A stretch of DNA of 41,732 nucleotides, from positions 1 through 41,732 of the IMG/VR virus record IMGVR_UViG_3300045988_038035. One strand, written 5' to 3'. The stretch is from a virus. Below the pieces are notes generated by a model. That model searched no databases. It was given only the letters and a program-made list of their open reading frames with translations, and was not told the origin of the DNA. Shown piece by piece: positions 6,452 to 41,732 of this stretch. Each line of letters opens with the position of its first letter. The first letter of the stretch is position 1. The translations under genes were made by a program, and so were the position numbers.

Positions 6452-8038
6452 TCACTTTCTCCCGCCCGTCACATATTCGTATTCGAGCGCATAGAGCCGG
6501 TATTCTCCCTCTGCTTTGATCTTGAGCTTGAAGTGATCGCAGCGGCGAATCGGGCAGTTGAGCGTGAAAACGTCTTTCTCCTGCGCCCCGCAGCGGTCGA
6601 CCTCTTCCCACGCGCCGCCGTCGAACTTGACAAGGAACACGGCCGTTGTGCCCTTCTCGCATTCCAGCCGCGCCCGCACGCGCTGCACGTGCTTCGCGTC
6701 GAACGATCCGCCGTCATAGTCGGCAAATTCGGCAACGCTTGCAACCGCGCCCTCGCGCGTCGCCCCTGTGGGAATGTCTGCGGGGCTTCCAAGCAGCACG
6801 CACCCGCCGTCTACTAAGGCCATGATACCGCCGTGGTAGGCCATTTGCACCACGGGAAGCGCATCTTCCTTGTGCCATGTCCCGTTTTCCGTGCTGTAGC
6901 AGTAGAGCGCCGCCCCTGTGCCGGTCTTGAGGCTTGCGTAGTAGTTGAGCCCGTCGCTGCCGCCCACACCCTGTGTGAATCGCACCTCGTCCCCCAGCAC
7001 GCGCGAAATGCACCGCGGCATGCCGCCGCCGTACGCCATCACGCCCACTTTGGAGAGGTAGTAGAGCGTTTCTCCTGCGATGGCAAGGCTCTTTGCGCTG
7101 CCCTTCTGCACGCCGAGCACCGCGCTTGACATGAGTTGGAAGTTGGTCGGAATCGTGCCATACATCTTGAAGATTTTGTCCTCTTTGAAAAAGCACGGGT
7201 AGCCGAGATAGCTGACGCAGGCCGTGAATGCCCCCGCCGTGCCGCTTTCCACGTTGAACGAGCTTGTGGCCAGATTCTCAAAAACGTTCCAGTTGTAGGG
7301 GTCGCCGAGCTTGCTTGCATAGATGCTGTCACCCTTGCAGCCCCATACGCGGTTTTCGTTCGTGCAGACAAAGTCCATGTCGGGAACCGTCCGCTTGATC
7401 GTCACCGTGCCCGTTTCCGTGATGCTCGTCTGCCCGTCCGGCAGGCGGAATGTGTTCTCATAAAAGCGCAGCGTCTTTTTGTTCGCGCTGATCTCCCGAA
7501 TAACGGGTGTGCGGTTGTTGTACGGCATCTTCGTGCAGCCGGAGATCGTCACCGCGTCGCCCACGTTGAACGGGAACGCCGCGCCGGTCGTCGTAATGCT
7601 GTTCGCCGCCGCCTTTTCGTCGGCATACGTCCCGTCTCCAAAGGTAAGCCCAGCCGCGCTGTAGCTTGCCTCCATCGGCTTGATCGTCCCGTCCTTTTCA
7701 CATACGATCTTGTCCGGGAAGATGAGCACGCGCTCCCCGAGTGCGCAGAAGGTTTTTTCGCTGTCTTGGATGCTGCCCTTCTGCACGCCGCCGATGTAGA
7801 GCTTTGTCCCGTATACCTCATAGAGCTTGCCTGCGCTGAAAATGCCGTTTGCCTTGCCCATGCCGGAGCGTATGGTGTAGCGTCTCGCGCGAGGCGCGAG
7901 CAGCGGGAAAAACCGTGCCGACAGGTTGCTCATGTCGTACAGCTCGCCGCCCGACGCGCCGAACGTGTGGTTGATGCCGCCGAATTTCTCCTGCTGCATG
8001 CGCCGGTTGGCGTAGGCTGCGATCTCAGGCAGTCTCAT
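6452..8038 (-). CDS. Structural protein (tail/adaptor candidate), 528 aa
   Basis: Track ORF, tightly packed in the late operon. Function is inferred from position only. Confidence 0.75.
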   Translation of the reverse strand: MRLPEIAAYANRRMQQEKFGGINHTFGASGGELYDMSNLSARFFPLLAPRARRYTIRSGMGKANGIFSAGKLYEVYGTKLYIGGVQKGSIQDSEKTFCALGERVLIFPDKIVCEKDGTIKPMEASYSAAGLTFGDGTYADEKAAANSITTTGAAFPFNVGDAVTISGCTKMPYNNRTPVIREISANKKTLRFYENTFRLPDGQTSITETGTVTIKRTVPDMDFVCTNENRVWGCKGDSIYASKLGDPYNWNVFENLATSSFNVESGTAGAFTACVSYLGYPCFFKEDKIFKMYGTIPTNFQLMSSAVLGVQKGSAKSLAIAGETLYYLSKVGVMAYGGGMPRCISRVLGDEVRFTQGVGGSDGLNYYASLKTGTGAALYCYSTENGTWHKEDALPVVQMAYHGGIMALVDGGCVLLGSPADIPTGATREGAVASVAEFADYDGGSFDAKHVQRVRARLECEKGTTAVFLVKFDGGAWEEVDRCGAQEKDVFTLNCPIRRCDHFKLKIKAEGEYRLYALEYEYVTGGRK

Positions 8039-15998: not shown

Positions 15999-16214
15999 CT
16001 CATTCCCTCCTGCATGATCAAATCGCGGGCGTTTGGCTCCCCGTGTAAGCCGAGTAGGGGCTCTCCAATGCGTCCCCGCAGCGCGCGAGTGCGGCGGAAA
16101 GATGAAGAGAACCGCCGCAGCCCCCGCTGCGAGTGAAAGGAGAGAATGCCCCCGCTCGCTCTCAGCGTAGCACAAGCACTCTCCCCTTCTCACCACGGAT
16201 TGAAAAAATATTTT
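15999..16214 (-). promoter_or_regulatory. 216-nt structured non-coding leader upstream of the scaffold gene
   Basis: No credible ORF. Inverted repeat 16133-16149/16176-16193, plus GC hairpins 16116-16131 and 16091-16097/16112-16118. Confidence 0.55.
16164..16198 (-). promoter_or_regulatory. Late promoter-like motif, site B: CCGTGGTGAGAA-N-TGCTACGCT
   Basis: One of four intergenic minus-strand copies of the 9-mer CCGTGGTGA, each followed by an extended -10-like element. Confidence 0.5.
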
Positions 16215-20568: not shown

Positions 20569-20602
20569 ACGGTATCACGCGCTTTCCCACTTCTCACCAC
20601 GG
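20569..20602 (-). promoter_or_regulatory. Late promoter-like motif, site A: CCGTGGTGAGAA-N-TGATACCGT
   Basis: Located in the AT-rich leader upstream of terS. Confidence 0.5.
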
Positions 20603-20738: not shown

Positions 20739-20775
20739 AAAAAGAGAAGCAGGGCTTTCGCCCTGCCTCTTTCTC
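20739..20775 (-). terminator. Rho-independent terminator ending the early operon
   Basis: GCAGGGC-GAAA-GCCCTGC followed by TTCTCTTTTT on the minus strand. Confidence 0.8.
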
Positions 20776-25381: not shown

Positions 25382-25828
25382 TCACACCTCACGGATCGTG
25401 ATGCCGTACTTGTCCTGCATCAGCTTCTTTTTCAGCATATAGTCTTTCGTTTTCATACCCTTCGCGTCCTCGACCTCTCGAAGCCAGTACACCGTTCCGT
25501 TGCAGTCCGGCTCGGTCGCCCGCTCGTAAACAAAATCCGCGCGATAGACCATCGGCTTGATGCGTTTGCCCTCGATGGTCTTGTAGCCCTCAACGAGCGT
25601 GAAATTGGCTTGCAGCCGCAGGTCACGAATCTTTCCCATCGCTCGCAGCACTTTCAGCTCGGTGAATCGCGCCGCCTCGCGCTCGGAATCGAACTTGATG
25701 CCGTCGCGCACGACCTTGCGGTTGCCGTATTTGCTTTTCTTCGGCTTTTGCGTGCCTGCCAGTTTGTCAAGCACCTGCTTCTGCGCCGCAGGGCCCAGCC
25801 GTGCAAGGTCAGCTGATGTCAGCGCCAT
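25382..25828 (-). CDS. DUF1064-type phage nuclease-like protein
   Basis: KYGNRKV...FDSEREAARFTEL...YRADFVY...EDAKG pattern. Confidence 0.65.
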   Translation of the reverse strand: MALTSADLARLGPAAQKQVLDKLAGTQKPKKSKYGNRKVVRDGIKFDSEREAARFTELKVLRAMGKIRDLRLQANFTLVEGYKTIEGKRIKPMVYRADFVYERATEPDCNGTVYWLREVEDAKGMKTKDYMLKKKLMQDKYGITIREV

Positions 25829-26297
25829 CGTGCGCCTCCCATAAATCGCCCTGAGACGCGCTCTGCGCGTTTTTATCCTCCGATGGTGTCATTTCACGTT
25901 TTTCGTATTCCGAGCGTTCCTGCGCGCTCTCAGGGGCATTCCCGGCAGCTTCCCGCTTTCCGTCCGCAGGATCGTCACACAAACCGACGCCGATGATGTA
26001 ATTTTCGCCGTCGCTGCGTGCATGCACTTCGTGCTTGCGGTAGGTCTCCCGCGCGTCGAACTTCGGCAGCGTCAGGCGCTTGCCGATGACCGCCCCCGTA
26101 TCGGGGTCTACTGCGTCCTCGCCGTAGGCAATTGCCACCTGCGCAAGCAGCGCGTCGGTTGCAATGCTGATCTCGGCAACGCCGGCGGCTCGCCGGGAAA
26201 GCTGCGCGTTCAGCTTCATCAGGTCGCCGCAGCGCTTTTCGTAGCGGCCAAGCTCGTGCTCGAGCTGCTTGATCTTGTCTCTGTTTCTTGTACTCAT
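25809..26297 (-). CDS. Hypothetical protein, 162 aa (start refined)
   Basis: SD AGGGGAG precedes ATG 26297. Confidence 0.65.
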   Translation of the reverse strand: MSTRNRDKIKQLEHELGRYEKRCGDLMKLNAQLSRRAAGVAEISIATDALLAQVAIAYGEDAVDPDTGAVIGKRLTLPKFDARETYRKHEVHARSDGENYIIGVGLCDDPADGKREAAGNAPESAQERSEYEKREMTPSEDKNAQSASQGDLWEAHDGADIS

Positions 26298-26500
26298 GGT
26301 TTTGCTCCCCTTTCGTAGTGCAGCAGCAGCGCCCGAGCGATCGGGCAGCGCCGCCATTCTTCGTTGGCGCAGTAGCGCCGCGTATATTCGTCCAGCTCTT
26401 CTTTCGGCAGTTTGACTTGGGCGCCCTCGCAGTTGAGATAGTCGCGGTAGTCCCGCGAGTAAAACGGGCACTTGAAAATGCCCCCGCGATACCCGCTCAC
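26294..26500 (-). CDS. Hypothetical protein, 68 aa (GTG start in GTGA overlap)
   Basis: Overlaps the DnaC-like stop. Confidence 0.5.
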   Translation of the reverse strand: MSGYRGGIFKCPFYSRDYRDYLNCEGAQVKLPKEELDEYTRRYCANEEWRRCPIARALLLHYERGAKP

Positions 26501-31441: not shown

Positions 31442-32023
31442 ATGAGCTTTGCACAAAACTTGAAGTATATAAAAGAAAAAGAGAATCTAACCAACTACCG
31501 ACTTGCAAAACTTTTCGGTTGCAGTCAATCGTCTCTTATTAACTGGCTTGATAACGGTGTTGTTCCTCACCCAAAGACCCGCCAGAAGATCGCCGACCAT
31601 TTCGGCATCACGCTTGCCGAGCTGGACGGCGACGAGCTTCCCACTCTGCCGGAAAAAGGCGCAAAAAAAGCGCCCGCCCCCAAAAAGGACGAGCGCCTTG
31701 CGTTCGACGAGGCAAATATGCGTGTGCGATCCGCGCACCCGGTTTCTGTGCTGGCGGCAAAGTATAATGTTCCGTCTGCCGTGATGCAGCAGATCATCGG
31801 CTGTGACCTCGACACCGCGAATGGCATCATTCTCGGCCTTGCCGATCCGACCGACGAGCAGCTGCGCCGCGTCGCCGCCACGTTCTGCGTTCCCTACGCC
31901 GACCTTATTGATGGCTGGGTGGCAATGGCCGCCAATCCCAATGTTCTTTCCGACATATCTCGCCGAGTGTCAGATCGCTTCCCTCTACAGGGAGGTCATC
32001 GAGCTTCGGACGACGAGCCTTGA
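31442..32023 (+). CDS. cI-like XRE-family repressor (no S24 peptidase motifs seen)
   Basis: N-terminal HTH TNYRLAKLFGCSQSSLINW. The 3' end overlaps a convergent ORF. Confidence 0.75.
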   Translation: MSFAQNLKYIKEKENLTNYRLAKLFGCSQSSLINWLDNGVVPHPKTRQKIADHFGITLAELDGDELPTLPEKGAKKAPAPKKDERLAFDEANMRVRSAHPVSVLAAKYNVPSAVMQQIIGCDLDTANGIILGLADPTDEQLRRVAATFCVPYADLIDGWVAMAANPNVLSDISRRVSDRFPLQGGHRASDDEP

Positions 32024-32153
32024 TGCTCGGCCATGTTGGGTCAAGGATCGTGTTCCACTTGTCTTGAAACCTTTCGTAGGCGTCGCGCTGCTGTTCTTCC
32101 GGCAGAGCCCGCACTTCGTCAAGTTCTTTCAGGTACTCTTCCCTCGTATGCAT
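31905..32153 (-). CDS. Small protein, 82 aa, convergent with the cI-like gene
   Basis: SD GGAGGA 9 nt before ATG 32153. GC3 about 69% in its non-overlapping part. Confidence 0.55.
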   Translation of the reverse strand: MHTREEYLKELDEVRALPEEQQRDAYERFQDKWNTILDPTWPSIKARRPKLDDLPVEGSDLTLGEICRKEHWDWRPLPPSHQ

Positions 32154-32186: not shown

Positions 32187-32220
32187 ATCATATACCGCGC
32201 CGCGGTTCATTTCACCACGG
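32187..32220 (-). promoter_or_regulatory. Late promoter-like motif, site D: CCGTGGTGAAAT-N-TATGAT
   Basis: Upstream of the 82-aa minus-strand gene. Confidence 0.45.
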
Positions 32221-33980: not shown

Positions 33981-35096
33981 ATGGCGAATTGCATCAAATG
34001 TAAAGCAGCGCTGCCGGAAGGCGCGCTGTTTTGTCCTTTCTGCGGCAAAAAACAGGTCGCCGAAAAGCGCAAGGCGCTCAAGCGTGCCAACGGAACCGGC
34101 ACGGTATATAAGCTCTCAGGGCGCAGGTCGCGCCCGTGGGTCGCCGCAAAGAATCGGGTCATCATCGGATACTACCCCCGCAAGACCGACGCCGCAGATG
34201 CCTTAGAACGGCTTACGGGCCGTCCGCTGGACGAGCGATACAATATGACCTTTTCCGAAGTGTATGAAGATTGGAAGGCCGAGCATTTCCGTGAGATCGG
34301 CCCCTCCGGCGTAGAATCCTACGAAAACGCCTACAAGGTGTTCAAGCCCCTCTACGATAAGAAATTCCGCGACCTGCGCGCTTCAGACTTCCAGTCCGTT
34401 GTGGATCTCCACATGGGAAAATCTCACTCCACCGTGTCGAAGTACAAGCAGCTCATCACGCAAATGTCGAATTGGGCGATCCGCGAGGAAATCTGCTCCA
34501 CCAACTTTGCGAAATTTGTGAAACTCCCCGAGAACGTCAAGAAAGAAAAGGAAGTATTCACCGCGGAAGAGATCGAGAAGATCGAGGCAGACGGAAGCGA
34601 CGCCGCGAAGATCGTCCTCATGCTCCTTGCCACCGGCATGCGCATCGGTGAGTTGTTCTCCCTGCCGCTCGCGGATTATCATGAAACCTATGTAGTCGGC
34701 GGCGAGAAAACAAAAGCCGGACGGGATCGCGTCATTCCGATCCGCCCGGAGGGGAAACCGTATTTTGCCTACTTCGCCGCAAAAGCGACCGGGAAGCTGC
34801 TGCTCTCCGGATACGAGGGGCAGAAGATCCCCGCCAACTTCCGCCGCCGCGACTACTATCCCATGCTGGATCGCCTCGGGATAAAAAGAAAGACCCCCCA
34901 TGCCACGCGCCACACTTACGCCACGCGCGCGGTCAAGGAAGGTCTGCCCCCGGAATTTCTTCAAAAAATCATCGGTCACGCGGATTATTCCACCACTGCG
35001 AACATTTATACGCACCTCGATCCCGATACACTTGTTGCCGCTGTTACTAACACGCTACAAACAGTGTCTGAAAAAAGCAAAAAGAAAAAGCCCTGA
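33981..35096 (+). CDS. int: Tyrosine integrase with N-terminal Zn-ribbon
   Basis: CIKC...CPFCG, then HATRHTYATRA...GHADYSTTANIYTHL. Confidence 0.93.
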   Translation: MANCIKCKAALPEGALFCPFCGKKQVAEKRKALKRANGTGTVYKLSGRRSRPWVAAKNRVIIGYYPRKTDAADALERLTGRPLDERYNMTFSEVYEDWKAEHFREIGPSGVESYENAYKVFKPLYDKKFRDLRASDFQSVVDLHMGKSHSTVSKYKQLITQMSNWAIREEICSTNFAKFVKLPENVKKEKEVFTAEEIEKIEADGSDAAKIVLMLLATGMRIGELFSLPLADYHETYVVGGEKTKAGRDRVIPIRPEGKPYFAYFAAKATGKLLLSGYEGQKIPANFRRRDYYPMLDRLGIKRKTPHATRHTYATRAVKEGLPPEFLQKIIGHADYSTTANIYTHLDPDTLVAAVTNTLQTVSEKSKKKKP

Positions 35097-35122
35097 AACC
35101 GTTGAGTTTCAAGGCTTTTTTC
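35090..35122 (+). terminator. Terminator after int
   Basis: GCCCTGAAAC-N6-GTTTCAAGGC followed by TTTTTT. Confidence 0.75.
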
Positions 35123-35167
35123 TGGTGCGCGGTACAGGACTCGAACCTGTGACCCCATGCACGTCAA
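35123..35167 (-). other. attP core: 3' half of a tRNA gene (anticodon loop to CCA)
   Basis: Minus strand reads TTGACGT-GCATG-GGGTC-ACAGG-TTCGAGT-CCTGT-ACCGCGC-A-CCA. There is no matching 5' half (no acceptor or anticodon-stem partners upstream). Confidence 0.7.
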
Positions 35168-35303
35168 ATAGCTATGAACGCGCGATTTGAGGAATTGTGT
35201 TGCAATAACACGGAATTAAGCAGAATAAATGCAACAAAGTGAGGTTAAATGTCTCGCTATTCTGCTTCATTCCTTCGCGGTTGCTAACAAATCCCTAACA
35301 GGT

Positions 35304-37654: not shown

Positions 37655-37703
37655 TTACACAAGAGAAATGGCCTCACCGTTCGGTGGGGCCGTTTCTCTT
37701 TTC
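37655..37703. terminator. Bidirectional hairpin terminator
   Basis: GGCCTCACC-GTTC-GGTGGGGCC with T-rich flanks on both strands. Confidence 0.65.
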
Positions 37704-37934
37704 GTATACTTCTGATGCCATTTTGCGGTATGCGCGCCGGCGGTATTTCTTCACTGCATCAACAGATAGGCTTCGTTCCATTGCCACCTGCACGCAGCTT
37801 TTCTGCCGCACATCACACTCAATGATGCACGCCGCCTCGTCCTGCGGAAGCTCGAAGGATAAAACGTATGCCACGGCTCGACGTGGAGCCATCGCGGATA
37901 GTTCCGCGCGGATCTGCTTGTGCTGACTGTCCAT
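37674..37934 (-). CDS. Sigma-70 region-4-like HTH protein, 86 aa (candidate late regulator)
   Basis: SD AGAAAGGGG. Motif VAMERSLSVDAVKKYRRRAYRKM. Confidence 0.55.
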   Translation of the reverse strand: MDSQHKQIRAELSAMAPRRAVAYVLSFELPQDEAACIIECDVRQKSCVQVAMERSLSVDAVKKYRRRAYRKMASEVYEKRNGPTER

Positions 37935-39341: not shown

Positions 39342-39377
39342 GAGCGTATCACGTCTCCTGTATGAATTTCACCACGG
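39342..39377 (-). promoter_or_regulatory. Late promoter-like motif, site C: CCGTGGTGAAAT-N-TGATACGCT
   Basis: Lies between the giant-ORF stop and the lysis cassette. Confidence 0.5.
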
Positions 39378-39419
39378 GAAAAGGGAACTGCCAAGAAATT
39401 ATCAGCAGTCCCCTTCCAT

Positions 39420-41732
39420 TTACGTCGCCTTTCTGCGCGCGATCTTGAGCTGTTCGTCCACTCTTGCGCGGTTCCAGTGTCGAATGCTCTTCCCTACGCC
39501 GAAGTCCTCAAATAGGGCCGCGCGCTGTTTATCGGAAAGCCCCTTCTGCTGATAAACAAGCTCCATGATCTGTAAGCCTTCGCTGTTGCTGATGGTTTCA
39601 CCGTTTTTGTCCTTCAGGCTTTTGATCCCGCCTTTCGCCAGATAGAGCACAATATACTGGGCTTCTGAAACGCCCGTTTTTTTGACGGTATCTATGGCCT
39701 TTGCCGCCCACCCGTCCGTTTGGTAATTGCTCACGCTCATTTTCCCAACGATGTTGGCATATTCGTAGGCTTTCGCAACGGCATCTGCCTTATCGCCGTC
39801 GCTCATGGACTTATAGCTCGCAAGTCCCGTGAGCTCGCTGACGATCTTATAGGAAGTCTGCCCGCGCTTTGTGGCGTACTTGACGTATTCCTCGCCGGTC
39901 AACTGTTTGTTTTCCTTATTCACGGTAAAAGATTTTGGCGCGCGCTGCGGCAGGACTTTGGACTCACCGGTCGCCTCATACAGGCGGCTCAATTCATCTT
40001 CCATTTTGCTGCCGCTTACCTTCGAGGTATACGCGGGATTCGCAAAATTGTTAAATGCCCGCGCGGCCACGCCTCCGGAGTTTTCCGTGCGCCCCCATGC
40101 GTCGATAAAGGGAATCTGCCCGTAGTCAACGCCCGGAATACGCGCGCTGGCCTTGCCGAGCGCATATTGCATATCCGGCGTCAGGAATTTGTTCTTATCC
40201 GTATAGGTCGTCATGCGCGTGCTTTCGCCCGTGCGCTCCGCCTGCCCGAAGACCGTCGGGATACCCTGCGTCAAATAACTCGTCGCCGCGCTTGCTACCG
40301 CACTGGTTAGTGCGTTTGTGTCCCCGGAGGACGCATACCCCACCGCGTCAAAAACGTCGTTCAGGCTTTGCAGACAGCTCATGGAAAGAAGCGGGTCCGT
40401 CACGTTGCTTGCTGCCTGAAGCATATCACTCATAGTGAGATACCCGTTGTTCGCCTGCATCTGCTCGTAAAGGTTTGCCCCGACGAAAAACGGAAGCGCT
40501 TCCGGCGCAAGCCAATCCAGCGTAATACTCGTGCCATTTGGCAGCTCCAGTGCGTATTCCTGATGCCCTTGCAGCTCGTCGAACTTTTTCTTCTTCTCGT
40601 CATCACCGCCGCTGCCGCGAAGAATGCCCTCTTTCGCCATATAAAGACCGAGCATCATCAGCCCCGTGCCGGTCAGTCCGGCGGCGGCCCGGTCGATCAT
40701 TTCGGTCGCCTGCATATTCCCTTTCTGCACCTGCACAAGGTCATAGCTTATGCTTTTGAGGAAACCAATAGGGCTGTATTCCACGCCGCGCACCAGAATG
40801 TTGGCTGGTGTCTTGCGGAACGGCAGGATTCCTTCGGTGAGGGTGCTTCCGAGGCGTTTCATCTTGTTATCCCCGCGGTATCTGCCGAGATCGGAGATCA
40901 TCTGTGAAAACGCATTGGTGTCTCGATAGGTCGCTTTCTGCGCCTCTCTGATCGCGTATTCGCGTGCCGCTTCAATGCCTTTCCCGCCAGATACCTGCTC
41001 CGCGGTAATGCCATTTGCTTTGCAGAATTGCGCCAGCGCCGCCGCGTAATGCGGCTTGGAGAACCATGCGTCTTCCGCATCCAGCGCCGTGCTGTTGAAT
41101 TTGCGCATCGCTTCCAGCAGCTTCGGTTTGAAGATCGTGCGTCCTTCCTCGATTTCCTGTCGCACATTGACATTATCATTGTACTTGCCGCTGCCGAGAG
41201 CCTGCTCGCGAATGTTGGCATAGTCACTCCATGCGGCCTTGATAAGCCCTGCGTCCTTCGTCGTCAGGATTGCCTTCGTGCGTCCGACTTTGCCGCCGCT
41301 CACCGCGTTCGCAGCGCTCTCAATGCCTGCGCCGATGACGTTCTTTACCGTGACAGCAGGAACAAATCCTACGTTTCCAACGATGTTGCGCACATGCGTG
41401 CGTGGATTACCAAGCATCGAAAAGTAGCGCCAAGCGTTCCATTTGTCAATGAAGCGGCTCGGCATCTGTCTGCCGATATCGCGATAGATTTCCTTCATCG
41501 CCTCGGTGCGCGCATCGTCGTCCTTCGCGTTCAGGAACTTCTCAGCGAGGTCGCGGTCAATCTTCAGATCAGGGGCCTTTTCCCCGTACTGCTTTTTGAG
41601 ATCTTCTGTCAAGTTCTCCACGCTGCGCTGCGCCGCATAAAGCTGCGTACTGGGGTCCTGCTGCTTGAGCAGCCGCGTTGCCTGCAACGCCTGTGCCGCA
41701 TTTCTCTGGCGCTTTACGATGGTGTCGAGCAC
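39420..41732 (-). CDS. Giant protein, 3' part (724 unique codons including TAA stop, plus 47 codons duplicated by the terminal overlap)
   Basis: Track ORF runs to the window edge. Its apparent GTG start is only the window boundary. The upstream continuation is nt 5175..142 of the circle. Confidence 0.8.
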   Translation of the reverse strand: MLDTIVKRQRNAAQALQATRLLKQQDPSTQLYAAQRSVENLTEDLKKQYGEKAPDLKIDRDLAEKFLNAKDDDARTEAMKEIYRDIGRQMPSRFIDKWNAWRYFSMLGNPRTHVRNIVGNVGFVPAVTVKNVIGAGIESAANAVSGGKVGRTKAILTTKDAGLIKAAWSDYANIREQALGSGKYNDNVNVRQEIEEGRTIFKPKLLEAMRKFNSTALDAEDAWFSKPHYAAALAQFCKANGITAEQVSGGKGIEAAREYAIREAQKATYRDTNAFSQMISDLGRYRGDNKMKRLGSTLTEGILPFRKTPANILVRGVEYSPIGFLKSISYDLVQVQKGNMQATEMIDRAAAGLTGTGLMMLGLYMAKEGILRGSGGDDEKKKKFDELQGHQEYALELPNGTSITLDWLAPEALPFFVGANLYEQMQANNGYLTMSDMLQAASNVTDPLLSMSCLQSLNDVFDAVGYASSGDTNALTSAVASAATSYLTQGIPTVFGQAERTGESTRMTTYTDKNKFLTPDMQYALGKASARIPGVDYGQIPFIDAWGRTENSGGVAARAFNNFANPAYTSKVSGSKMEDELSRLYEATGESKVLPQRAPKSFTVNKENKQLTGEEYVKYATKRGQTSYKIVSELTGLASYKSMSDGDKADAVAKAYEYANIVGKMSVSNYQTDGWAAKAIDTVKKTGVSEAQYIVLYLAKGGIKSLKDKNGETISNSEGLQIMELVYQQKGLSDKQRAALFEDFGVGKSIRHWNRARVDEQLKIARRKAT
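41592..41732. repeat. Terminal direct repeat, copy 2 (identical to 1..141)
   Basis: Same comparison. The length of 141 matches a k-mer overlap left by a de Bruijn assembler on a circular contig. Confidence 0.97.

Follow-up and report, generated by a model that had tools for sequence, protein, structure and literature searches.

A box in place of the -35 hexamer at putative late promoters of an Oscillospiraceae phage lineage, with a small four-cysteine protein as candidate reader

The phage genome and its four box-bearing sites

The window analysed here, 41,732 nucleotides in length, covers positions 1 to 41,732 of virus record IMGVR_UViG_3300045988_038035. A direct terminal repeat of 141 bp (1-141 and 41592-41732) indicates that it is a circularly assembled complete genome of ~41.6 kb; its GC content is ~57%, and nearly all of its genes lie on the minus strand. 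The gene order starts with a cro-like gene and continues through DNA methylase, Lin1244/DnaD-like, DnaC/IstB-like, DUF1064, HNH endonuclease and MazG-like genes. The MazG-like gene is followed by a strong terminator (20770-20745), the first copy of the motif described below and terS (Pfam GP3_package); then come TerL, portal, a small Prp-like gene, the second motif copy, scaffold, capsid and the tail genes; then a 2,449-aa ORF, a terminator-like hairpin and the third motif copy; and after this copy XhlA-like and holin-like genes, an M15 endolysin and an 86-aa protein. We take the phage to be a temperate siphovirus of gut Oscillospiraceae. The closest prophage TerL (91% identity) belongs to an Oscillibacter sp. 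ER4 assembly, a series of further prophage TerL proteins in MAGs of Oscillospiraceae and other Clostridia extends down to ~60% identity, and the nucleotide relatives come from human faecal viromes.

Two further features of the genome were recorded. The 2,449-aa ORF (minus) wraps the contig ends, running from ~5186 to 1 and then from 41591 to 39420, and over its C-terminal 723 aa the identity is 95-99% in nearly all of 68 viral loci and ~57% in a second group. We considered this giant protein as a phage RNA polymerase and dropped the idea on inspection of the sequence, because the bipartite, sigma-type spacing of the sites favours the host holoenzyme. After an integrase-like ORF (33981-35096), positions 35121-35170 (plus) contain the reverse complement of a tRNA 3′ half with the T-arm GGTTCGAGTCC. 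ARAGORN found no complete tRNA, a stretch overlapping this segment matches several otherwise unrelated faecal phage contigs, and the segment is probably the attP core.

The box-bearing sites, which we regard as putative promoters, and the elements close to them are:

20569-20602, minus: putative terS promoter; box CCGTGGTGA at 20602-20594, GTGAGA at 20597-20592, 17-nt spacer, TGaTACCGT at 20577-20569
16164-16198, minus: putative scaffold/capsid promoter; box CCGTGGTGA at 16198-16190, 18-nt spacer, TGcTACGCT at 16172-16164
39343-39377, minus: putative lysis promoter; box CCGTGGTGA at 39377-39369, 18-nt spacer, TGaTACGCT at 39351-39343
32187-32220, minus: fourth putative promoter; CCGTGGTGA with GTGAAA-17-TATGAT, a canonical -10 element without TG
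20745-20770, minus: intrinsic terminator at the end of the early operon; 11-bp stem with 7 GC pairs, T-run
39379-39413, minus: terminator-like hairpin and T-run at the end of the giant-protein gene, directly before the box of the lysis promoter
16123-16199, minus: long inverted repeat (hairpin) enclosing the box, spacer and -10 element of the scaffold/capsid promoter, at this site only

The preliminary description of this DNA had reported four intergenic, minus-strand copies of the 9-mer, and these were borne out: the window contains exactly four exact copies of CCGTGGTGA (16190-16198, 20594-20602, 32212-32220 and 39369-39377), all on the minus strand and all intergenic, compared with a mean of 0.13 in 100 dinucleotide-preserving shuffles of the window, none of which gave four. 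Their reported positions upstream of terS, of scaffold/capsid, of the lysis genes and of an 82-aa gene agree with the gene map, and the -10-like element that had been placed 17-19 nt after GTGA(A/G)A lies at 17-18 nt, with spacers between GTGARA and TAnnnT of 17, 18, 18 and 17 nt when read directly from the sequence. The pattern GTGGTGA-N(14-20)-TGNTAC was found at three of the sites (expected 0), and the fourth, at 32220, has GTGAAA-17-TATGAT. The -10 hexamers are TACCGT, TACGCT, TACGCT and TATGAT, so that T1, A2 and T6 are kept at all four, and they form part of an extended -10 element, TGnTA(C/G)(C/G)(G/C)T, at every site except 32220, where TG is missing. Relative to TTGACA, GTGAGA and GTGAAA match at 4/6 positions at a distance of 17-18 nt. 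Only the 32220 site passed a consensus scan, scoring 9/12 as a plain sigma-70-type promoter; with this score and a good canonical -10 element, it may be active even when no factor is present. The early promoter of the window itself, before the cro-like gene, reads TTGACT-17-TATAAT, indicating that host sigma-A uses canonical signals.

Degenerate extra copies of the box were looked for and rejected. With up to two mismatches, the 11-mer gave 18 matches in the window against 17.9 expected, showing that the signal is restricted to the four exact copies. A one-mismatch copy, CCGTGGTGCAA, lies at 6845-6855 (minus) inside a 528-aa tail gene (6452-8038) with TATCAT 17-18 nt further on, and is probably there by chance, since counts at that stringency equal expectation.

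The terminator at 20745-20770 ends ~145 nt upstream of the terS promoter, and an A/T-rich tract precedes the scaffold/capsid promoter. The fourth copy sits in an 81-nt gap ahead of the 82-aa ORF (31905-32153, minus), which is convergent with the cI-like gene. This 82-aa gene is antisense to the 3′ end of the cI-like gene (31442-32023, plus), and late transcription from the fourth promoter would run into cI. Some relatives keep the fourth-site promoter with TATGAT or GATAAT at the same spacing; the box promoter is kept at this cI-side position, and the small genes there differ.

The inverted repeat at the scaffold/capsid promoter gave a folding energy of -63 kcal/mol (z = -6.2) when folded as RNA, and its arms read GGGGAGAGTGC/GCATTCTCTCC in the window versus GGAGGAAGCC/GGCTTCCTCC in relatives with complementarity kept. 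At the other three copies structure was not significant (z = +0.5, -1.3 and -2.1), and Rfam covariance models run over the whole window gave no matches at the gathering threshold. The upstream arm would be transcribed only in read-through RNA from the terS promoter, on which ground the hairpin could be where such RNA is processed, or could act as a switch through its CCTCC anti-Shine-Dalgarno-like 3′ arm. Further downstream, at ~16012-16040 (minus) and just before the ribosome-binding site of the scaffold gene, lies a leader element, CACGGGG(G/A)GC..AAAC(A/G)CCCGCGAT, which is kept across box classes (L239, L247, L268, L269, L271 and L273; L numbers denote individual loci). Many relatives also carry GTCCTCC directly after the -10 element.

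The box in close and distant relatives

Conservation was assessed in 80 loci that were picked by TerL (88-100% amino-acid identity) and hence independently of the motif. The preliminary description had named conservation in relatives as a check, and here the box was invariant in 76/76 covered regions upstream of terS and in 77/77 scaffold sites downstream of the portal gene. CCGTGGTGAR and TGnTA(C/G)(C/G)(G/C)T are constant and the spacers and flanks have diverged; the spacer at terS can differ wholly, being ATAAAAGATGGCG in some relatives and GTGGGAAAGCGCG in others. Sequence upstream of the box showed no conservation in relatives and no conserved dyad. GCAGAG-like repeats in the terS leader region of the window were considered as Ltr-like direct repeats, but they are not kept in relatives and were discarded. 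Across 160 related viral loci (2.2 Mb), the gene strand has 184 copies of CCGTGGTGA and the opposite strand 10. The motif is confirmed and extends well beyond the window; a search of the literature on the 9-mer and on Oscillospiraceae late promoters found nothing relevant.

The copy at the lysis genes was followed in relatives sampled via the giant protein encoded just upstream, and was present in 53/53 close ones. Two architectures occur at this position. In the first, the box promoter comes straight after a terminator hairpin and T-run; in the second, there is neither an intergenic gap nor a motif, the upstream operon and the lysis genes being fused. The lysis copy is found only where a terminator and a gap part the lysis genes from the upstream operon, and thus behaves as a promoter would.

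In distant prophages the architecture is retained at both sites, the one before terS and the one in the gap between the Prp-like and scaffold genes, with other boxes. CCGTGGTGA is replaced by GGGGTGAA, by GGGGCGNAA, GTGGCGCAA or TGGGCGAAA, by GGGGAGAAA or by AAGTGGAAAAA, and in every class the box is followed after 17-18 nt by (TGn)TAnnnT. The classes are:

Class I: CCGTGGTGA; the window, L236-L238, L265
Class II: (A/C)(C/G)GGGGTGAA; L240, L241, L245, L261, L269, L271
Class II in L167: GCGTGGGGTGAA; TerL identity only 41%
Class III: TCGGGGCG(A/C/T)AA or TCGTGGCGC(A/G); L239, L243, L246, L268, L273, L275
Class III′: TTTGGGCGA(A/G)A; L242
Class IV: AAGTGGAAAAA; L247
Class V: (G/T)GGGGAGAAA; L264, L266, L267

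Two relatives, L249 and L250, share the head module and lack the gene for a 68-aa four-Cys protein that is introduced below; their terS position reads TTGACA-17-TGcTACGAT. The presence of a canonical TTGACA at this position indicates that the box takes the functional place of the -35 hexamer, and we therefore interpret the box as being recognised by a factor that stands in for the contact between sigma-A and the -35 hexamer. Repeated palindromes, AACTTGACAAGTTAAAA, flank the terS promoter in L249 (8734-8947) and L250 (1524-1708), which suggests that the late genes of these two phages would be controlled by a repressor rather than an activator.

The islands of conserved box sequence, the dependence of the lysis copy on a gap and the TTGACA of relatives without the candidate reader all point to late promoters in which the box replaces the -35 hexamer. 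As judged from these comparisons of sequence, it is highly likely that the four CCGTGGTGA sites are promoters. Replacement of the -35 region by a specific box implies dependence on an extra factor, and it is likely, with a little less confidence, that the promoters need a specific one.

Candidate readers of the box

Three genes outside the promoter regions bear on what might read the box:

26294-26500, minus: 68-aa four-Cys orphan protein; GTG start overlaps the stop of the DnaC/IstB-like gene
25809-26300, minus: coiled-coil protein, ~163 aa; adjoins the Cys gene
37674-37934, minus: 86-aa sigma-region-4-like protein; after the endolysin gene, in the late operon

The early regions of these phages are mosaic, and none of the window's early proteins is common, within 6 kb of terL, to the 80 TerL loci. 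When ORFs upstream of terS were clustered and promoter-bearing prophages were compared with promoter-less ones, three families were singled out: the four-Cys protein, the adjacent coiled-coil protein and DUF1064. The four-Cys protein, with four invariant or near-invariant cysteines, was present in 7/7 loci with a GGTGA-type box and in 4/13 others, and these four apparently negative loci turned out to have class III boxes. It is the early gene family most consistently common to promoter-bearing loci. An HMM detected it in all promoter-bearing prophage loci whose upstream sequence was long enough, with the exception of L247, which has a box-type promoter (AAGTGGAAAAA) yet no Cys gene within 10 kb, and gave no matches in L249-L263. 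The Cys gene lies directly upstream of the box preceding terS in L167, L264, L266 and L267, with a hairpin between gene and box in L167, L266 and L267.

The association was then used as a prediction, with genomic contexts picked by homology to the Cys protein alone. Seven contexts were informative (L266-L269, L271, L273 and L275); L270, L272, L274 and L276 were left out as uninformative, being truncated before the late genes or having a frameshifted gene. All seven contained the same head module with box promoters, and in all seven the N-terminal signature of the Cys protein correctly predicted the class of the box, where SGYRGG stands for class I, DYWHK for II, GYSNK for III and AGNT for V. 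The box cores GTGGTGA, GGGGTGA, GGGGCGA and GGGGAGA co-vary with these signatures in the same order. Over 17 loci, the box class was that of the nearest Cys protein in 16 and that of the nearest TerL in 14, and at the three loci discordant with TerL (L239, L167 and L268) the box follows the Cys protein.

The Cys protein matched nothing in Pfam, PHROG or NCBIfam (the last searched via an overlapping 232-aa ORF), and its homologues are all unnamed. The family is large, a profile search collecting 2,123 representative clusters (50% identity) at E <= 1e-3 and 343 at E <= 1e-10. An AlphaFold2 model (pLDDT 82, pTM 0.69) has three short strands followed by three helices; it matched no solved structure in the PDB (best E about 6) and only uncharacterised relatives in a library of viral structures, and no recognisable DNA-binding domain was found in the protein. 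The coiled-coil protein is a frequent partner of the Cys protein and is missing in class V phages. In the AT-rich relative L165, a single ORF (1286-1909) contains both the Cys domain and the coiled-coil protein, a fusion that suggests that the two adjacent genes act together.

Several genes just upstream of terS (114, 54, 91 and 109 aa, and a zinc-ribbon-like one of 86 aa) were considered as RinA-like activators and rejected; they gave no family match and are not conserved among motif-bearing relatives. In the window's clade the Cys gene lies within the replication module, 6 kb from terS, and from this position the protein might be a replication accessory. Because the Cys gene always occurs with one head module, shared descent could also explain much of its co-variation with the box. 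With these points set against the class-by-class agreement, we regard the four-Cys protein as the best candidate for the reader of the box and stop a little short of even odds on its identity.

Two other readers have to be weighed against the four-Cys protein. The preliminary description had proposed that the promoters depend on a phage factor and had put forward the 86-aa protein; the comparison of relatives backs the box-replaced -35 region on which the general idea relied and speaks against this particular protein. As an LtrA/RinA-type activator or as part of a split sigma, the 86-aa protein would bring an HTH resembling sigma-70 region 4 (Pfam 22.4 bits, with a weak NCBIfam match), the type of domain found in the Ltr late activators of Gram-positive phages (Quiles-Puchalt et al, 2013; PMC3753634), and in the sample taken via the giant protein all class I loci long enough to include this position have a homologue after the lysis genes. 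However, the Pfam score lies below the gathering score of 25.7, and co-occurrence with the class I box is confounded, the gene being physically linked to the lysis module. The gap between the endolysin gene and the 86-aa gene is 59 nt and has no visible promoter or terminator, so that the latter looks like a late gene itself. Phages with identical boxes differ in the recognition helix of the 86-aa protein (VDAVKKY, PEYVKTR, PEAVNRC; the distinct types are VDAVKKYRRRAY, PEYVKTRRRRAY and PEAVNRCRRRAY), and the PEAVNRC type is common to the motif-bearing L213 and to L161, where the promoter type is missing. Both L161 (complete genome MT835513.1) and L162 (MT835537.1, 37.7 kb) encode a homologue without having the promoter type: the sole CCGTGGTGA of L161 is the end of an ORF (Pro-Trp-stop), and the generalised box pattern gave matches in the two only at chance level. 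Conversely, the family is missing from four independent promoter-bearing contexts (L266-L269), among which L269 covers the post-endolysin position. Considering the helix variation, L161 and L162, L269 and the late-operon position, we rejected the 86-aa protein as the box reader, a role that is now very improbable for it. Unlikely, though to a lesser degree, is a factor of the host, be it an alternative sigma or an activator encoded by Oscillospiraceae, with the box classes reflecting host lineages. It would account for the box of L247 in the absence of a Cys gene, for the fact that no phage protein of known DNA-binding fold tracks the motif and for the difference in box class between phages of different MAG taxa. 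Against it, MAGs labelled Oscillibacter contain both class I and class III (L236 and L239), the box is unlike the AAC/CGT elements of ECF sigma factors and the SigE/K/F/G/H consensus sequences, relatives in the same bacterial group use TTGACA, and the tight link to one phage gene family would be left unexplained.

A reader would be superfluous if the sites were ordinary sigma-A promoters, with GTGARA as a weak -35 hexamer offset by the TG extension and the extra bases of the box a matter of history. The 9/12 score of the fourth site fits such promoters, and extended -10 promoters can function without a -35 element. Yet 9-11 nt including CCGTG are invariant over >150 sites while the adjacent bases vary, the box varies in discrete forms specific to each class, the TAsssT cores are poor, and late promoters without regulation would kill a lysogen; we consider this explanation improbable. 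Less probable still, and by our estimate barely credible, is that the box acts in RNA, through processing, antitermination or attenuation of read-through transcripts, and is not part of a promoter. The stable hairpin around the scaffold copy, with arms that co-vary between the window and relatives, is what such an element would predict, but only one of four sites is structured, the box has no conserved pairing partner and no Rfam match, terminators precede the terS and lysis copies, and the fixed distance of 17-18 nt to TAnnnT is a feature of DNA and RNA polymerase. On the structure and Rfam results the RNA-level explanation was rejected.

Apart from its relation to the box, the 86-aa family combines an N-terminal half that is highly conserved, MDSQHK.IRA.LSSMAPKRAVAYILSFELP.DEA.CIIECDVR.KS, with an HTH half that is modular and variable. 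In >130 related loci its gene almost always follows directly on that for the endolysin or the giant protein.

Proposed mechanism and comparison with known systems

According to the model that we favour, each promoter would be served by host RNA polymerase through a sigma-A-type -10 element, three of them being TGnTAsssT with a G+C-rich, presumably weak core and one a canonical TATGAT. The asymmetric 9-11-bp box CCGTGGTGAR would take the place of the -35 hexamer, at roughly -40 to -31. With the early operon ending at its terminator, a phage protein made from this operon would recognise the box and, once bound, recruit or stabilise the host enzyme, thereby switching on four units: packaging and portal; scaffold, capsid and tail; lysis; and the small gene next to cI. 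Rather than the 86-aa protein, the reader would be the 68-aa four-Cys protein (26294-26500), which may act jointly with the coiled-coil protein encoded next to it. To this reading as a whole, late promoters with a box that replaces the -35 hexamer and is most likely read by the four-Cys protein, we assign a probability of about 0.5 on the strength of the genome comparisons. Whether the four-Cys family represents a new class of late-transcription activators, unrelated to sigma region 4 and working by -35 substitution through a short box, is a more tentative proposal that we would hold with somewhat less than even confidence.

Oscillospiraceae are abundant, mostly uncultured Clostridia of the human gut. 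For the timing of late genes in their phages, the comparisons provide a promoter grammar (box, 17-18 nt, extended -10 element) that a broad phage lineage keeps at unchanged gene positions. They also distinguish at least four discrete classes of box and single out a specific candidate regulator, which belongs to a large family of uncharacterised proteins. Should it be confirmed, this regulator would define a late-activator family unrelated to the Ltr superfamily, and late operons and prophage activity could be annotated in gut metagenomes. If the four-Cys activator reading is true, phages of gut Clostridia would also contain natural orthogonal activator/promoter pairs, which could supply genetic tools for gut anaerobes that are hard to engineer.

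Among known late activators, the closest setting is that of the Ltr superfamily, which comprises RinA, ArpU, LtrA/Sigma70_r4, LtrB/DUF1492 and LtrC. These are basic proteins of ~130 aa whose C-terminal domain resembles sigma region 4; their binding site, three direct repeats of 7 nt, lies upstream of a single late promoter, and late-activator genes of Firmicute phages typically lie directly upstream of terS (Quiles-Puchalt et al, 2013; PMC3753634). The phages described here are likewise temperate Firmicute siphoviruses in which an activator of the early operon, here a candidate, would act on a promoter upstream of terS, and in divergent members the candidate Cys gene lies directly upstream of terS. 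Unlike the Ltr site, however, the box is a single asymmetric element of 9-11 bp at the -35 position, repeated at four promoters of separate units, and the candidate protein has 68 aa, four Cys and no similarity to Ltr families. No Ltr-type activator (~130 aa with a sigma-region-4-like C-terminus) was found among the genes upstream of terS, the only sigma-region-4-like protein being the one of 86 aa located after the endolysin gene.

In size and cysteine content the candidate recalls Ogr and Delta of phages P2 and P4, zinc-finger late activators of ~70 aa with four Cys; P2 also has four late promoters sharing one conserved element. The site of Ogr has dyad symmetry (TGT-N12-ACA) and its centre is near -55, whereas the box described here is asymmetric and overlaps the -35 position, and the host is Gram-positive. 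Searches of Pfam, PHROG, NCBIfam and the PDB detected no similarity of sequence or fold between the Cys protein and Ogr/Delta. ECF sigma promoters combine a -35 element containing AAC with a -10 element containing CGT(C) and are used by a cognate sigma with regions 2 and 4; the box contains no AAC, CGTC occurs only at the terS site, and no protein with region 2 was found among the phage genes scanned. The promoters and their candidate reader belong to none of the Ltr, Ogr and ECF sigma systems, whose defining features they lack.

The logic of the promoters is closer to that of other systems. At the middle promoters of T4, a MotA box is combined with a sigma-70 -10 element, with sigma appropriation by AsiA. 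As in these promoters and those activated by lambda cII, the box would stand in for the -35 element while the sigma-A-type -10 element is kept, a class II or -35-substitution arrangement; the proteins, in contrast, are unrelated, and no AsiA-like or MotA-like gene was recognised here. Extended -10 promoters of sigma-A resemble the three sites with TGnTAnnnT, in which T-12, A-11 and T-7 are kept, and differ from them in that here the core of the hexamer is rich in G+C and is accompanied by a long conserved box upstream.
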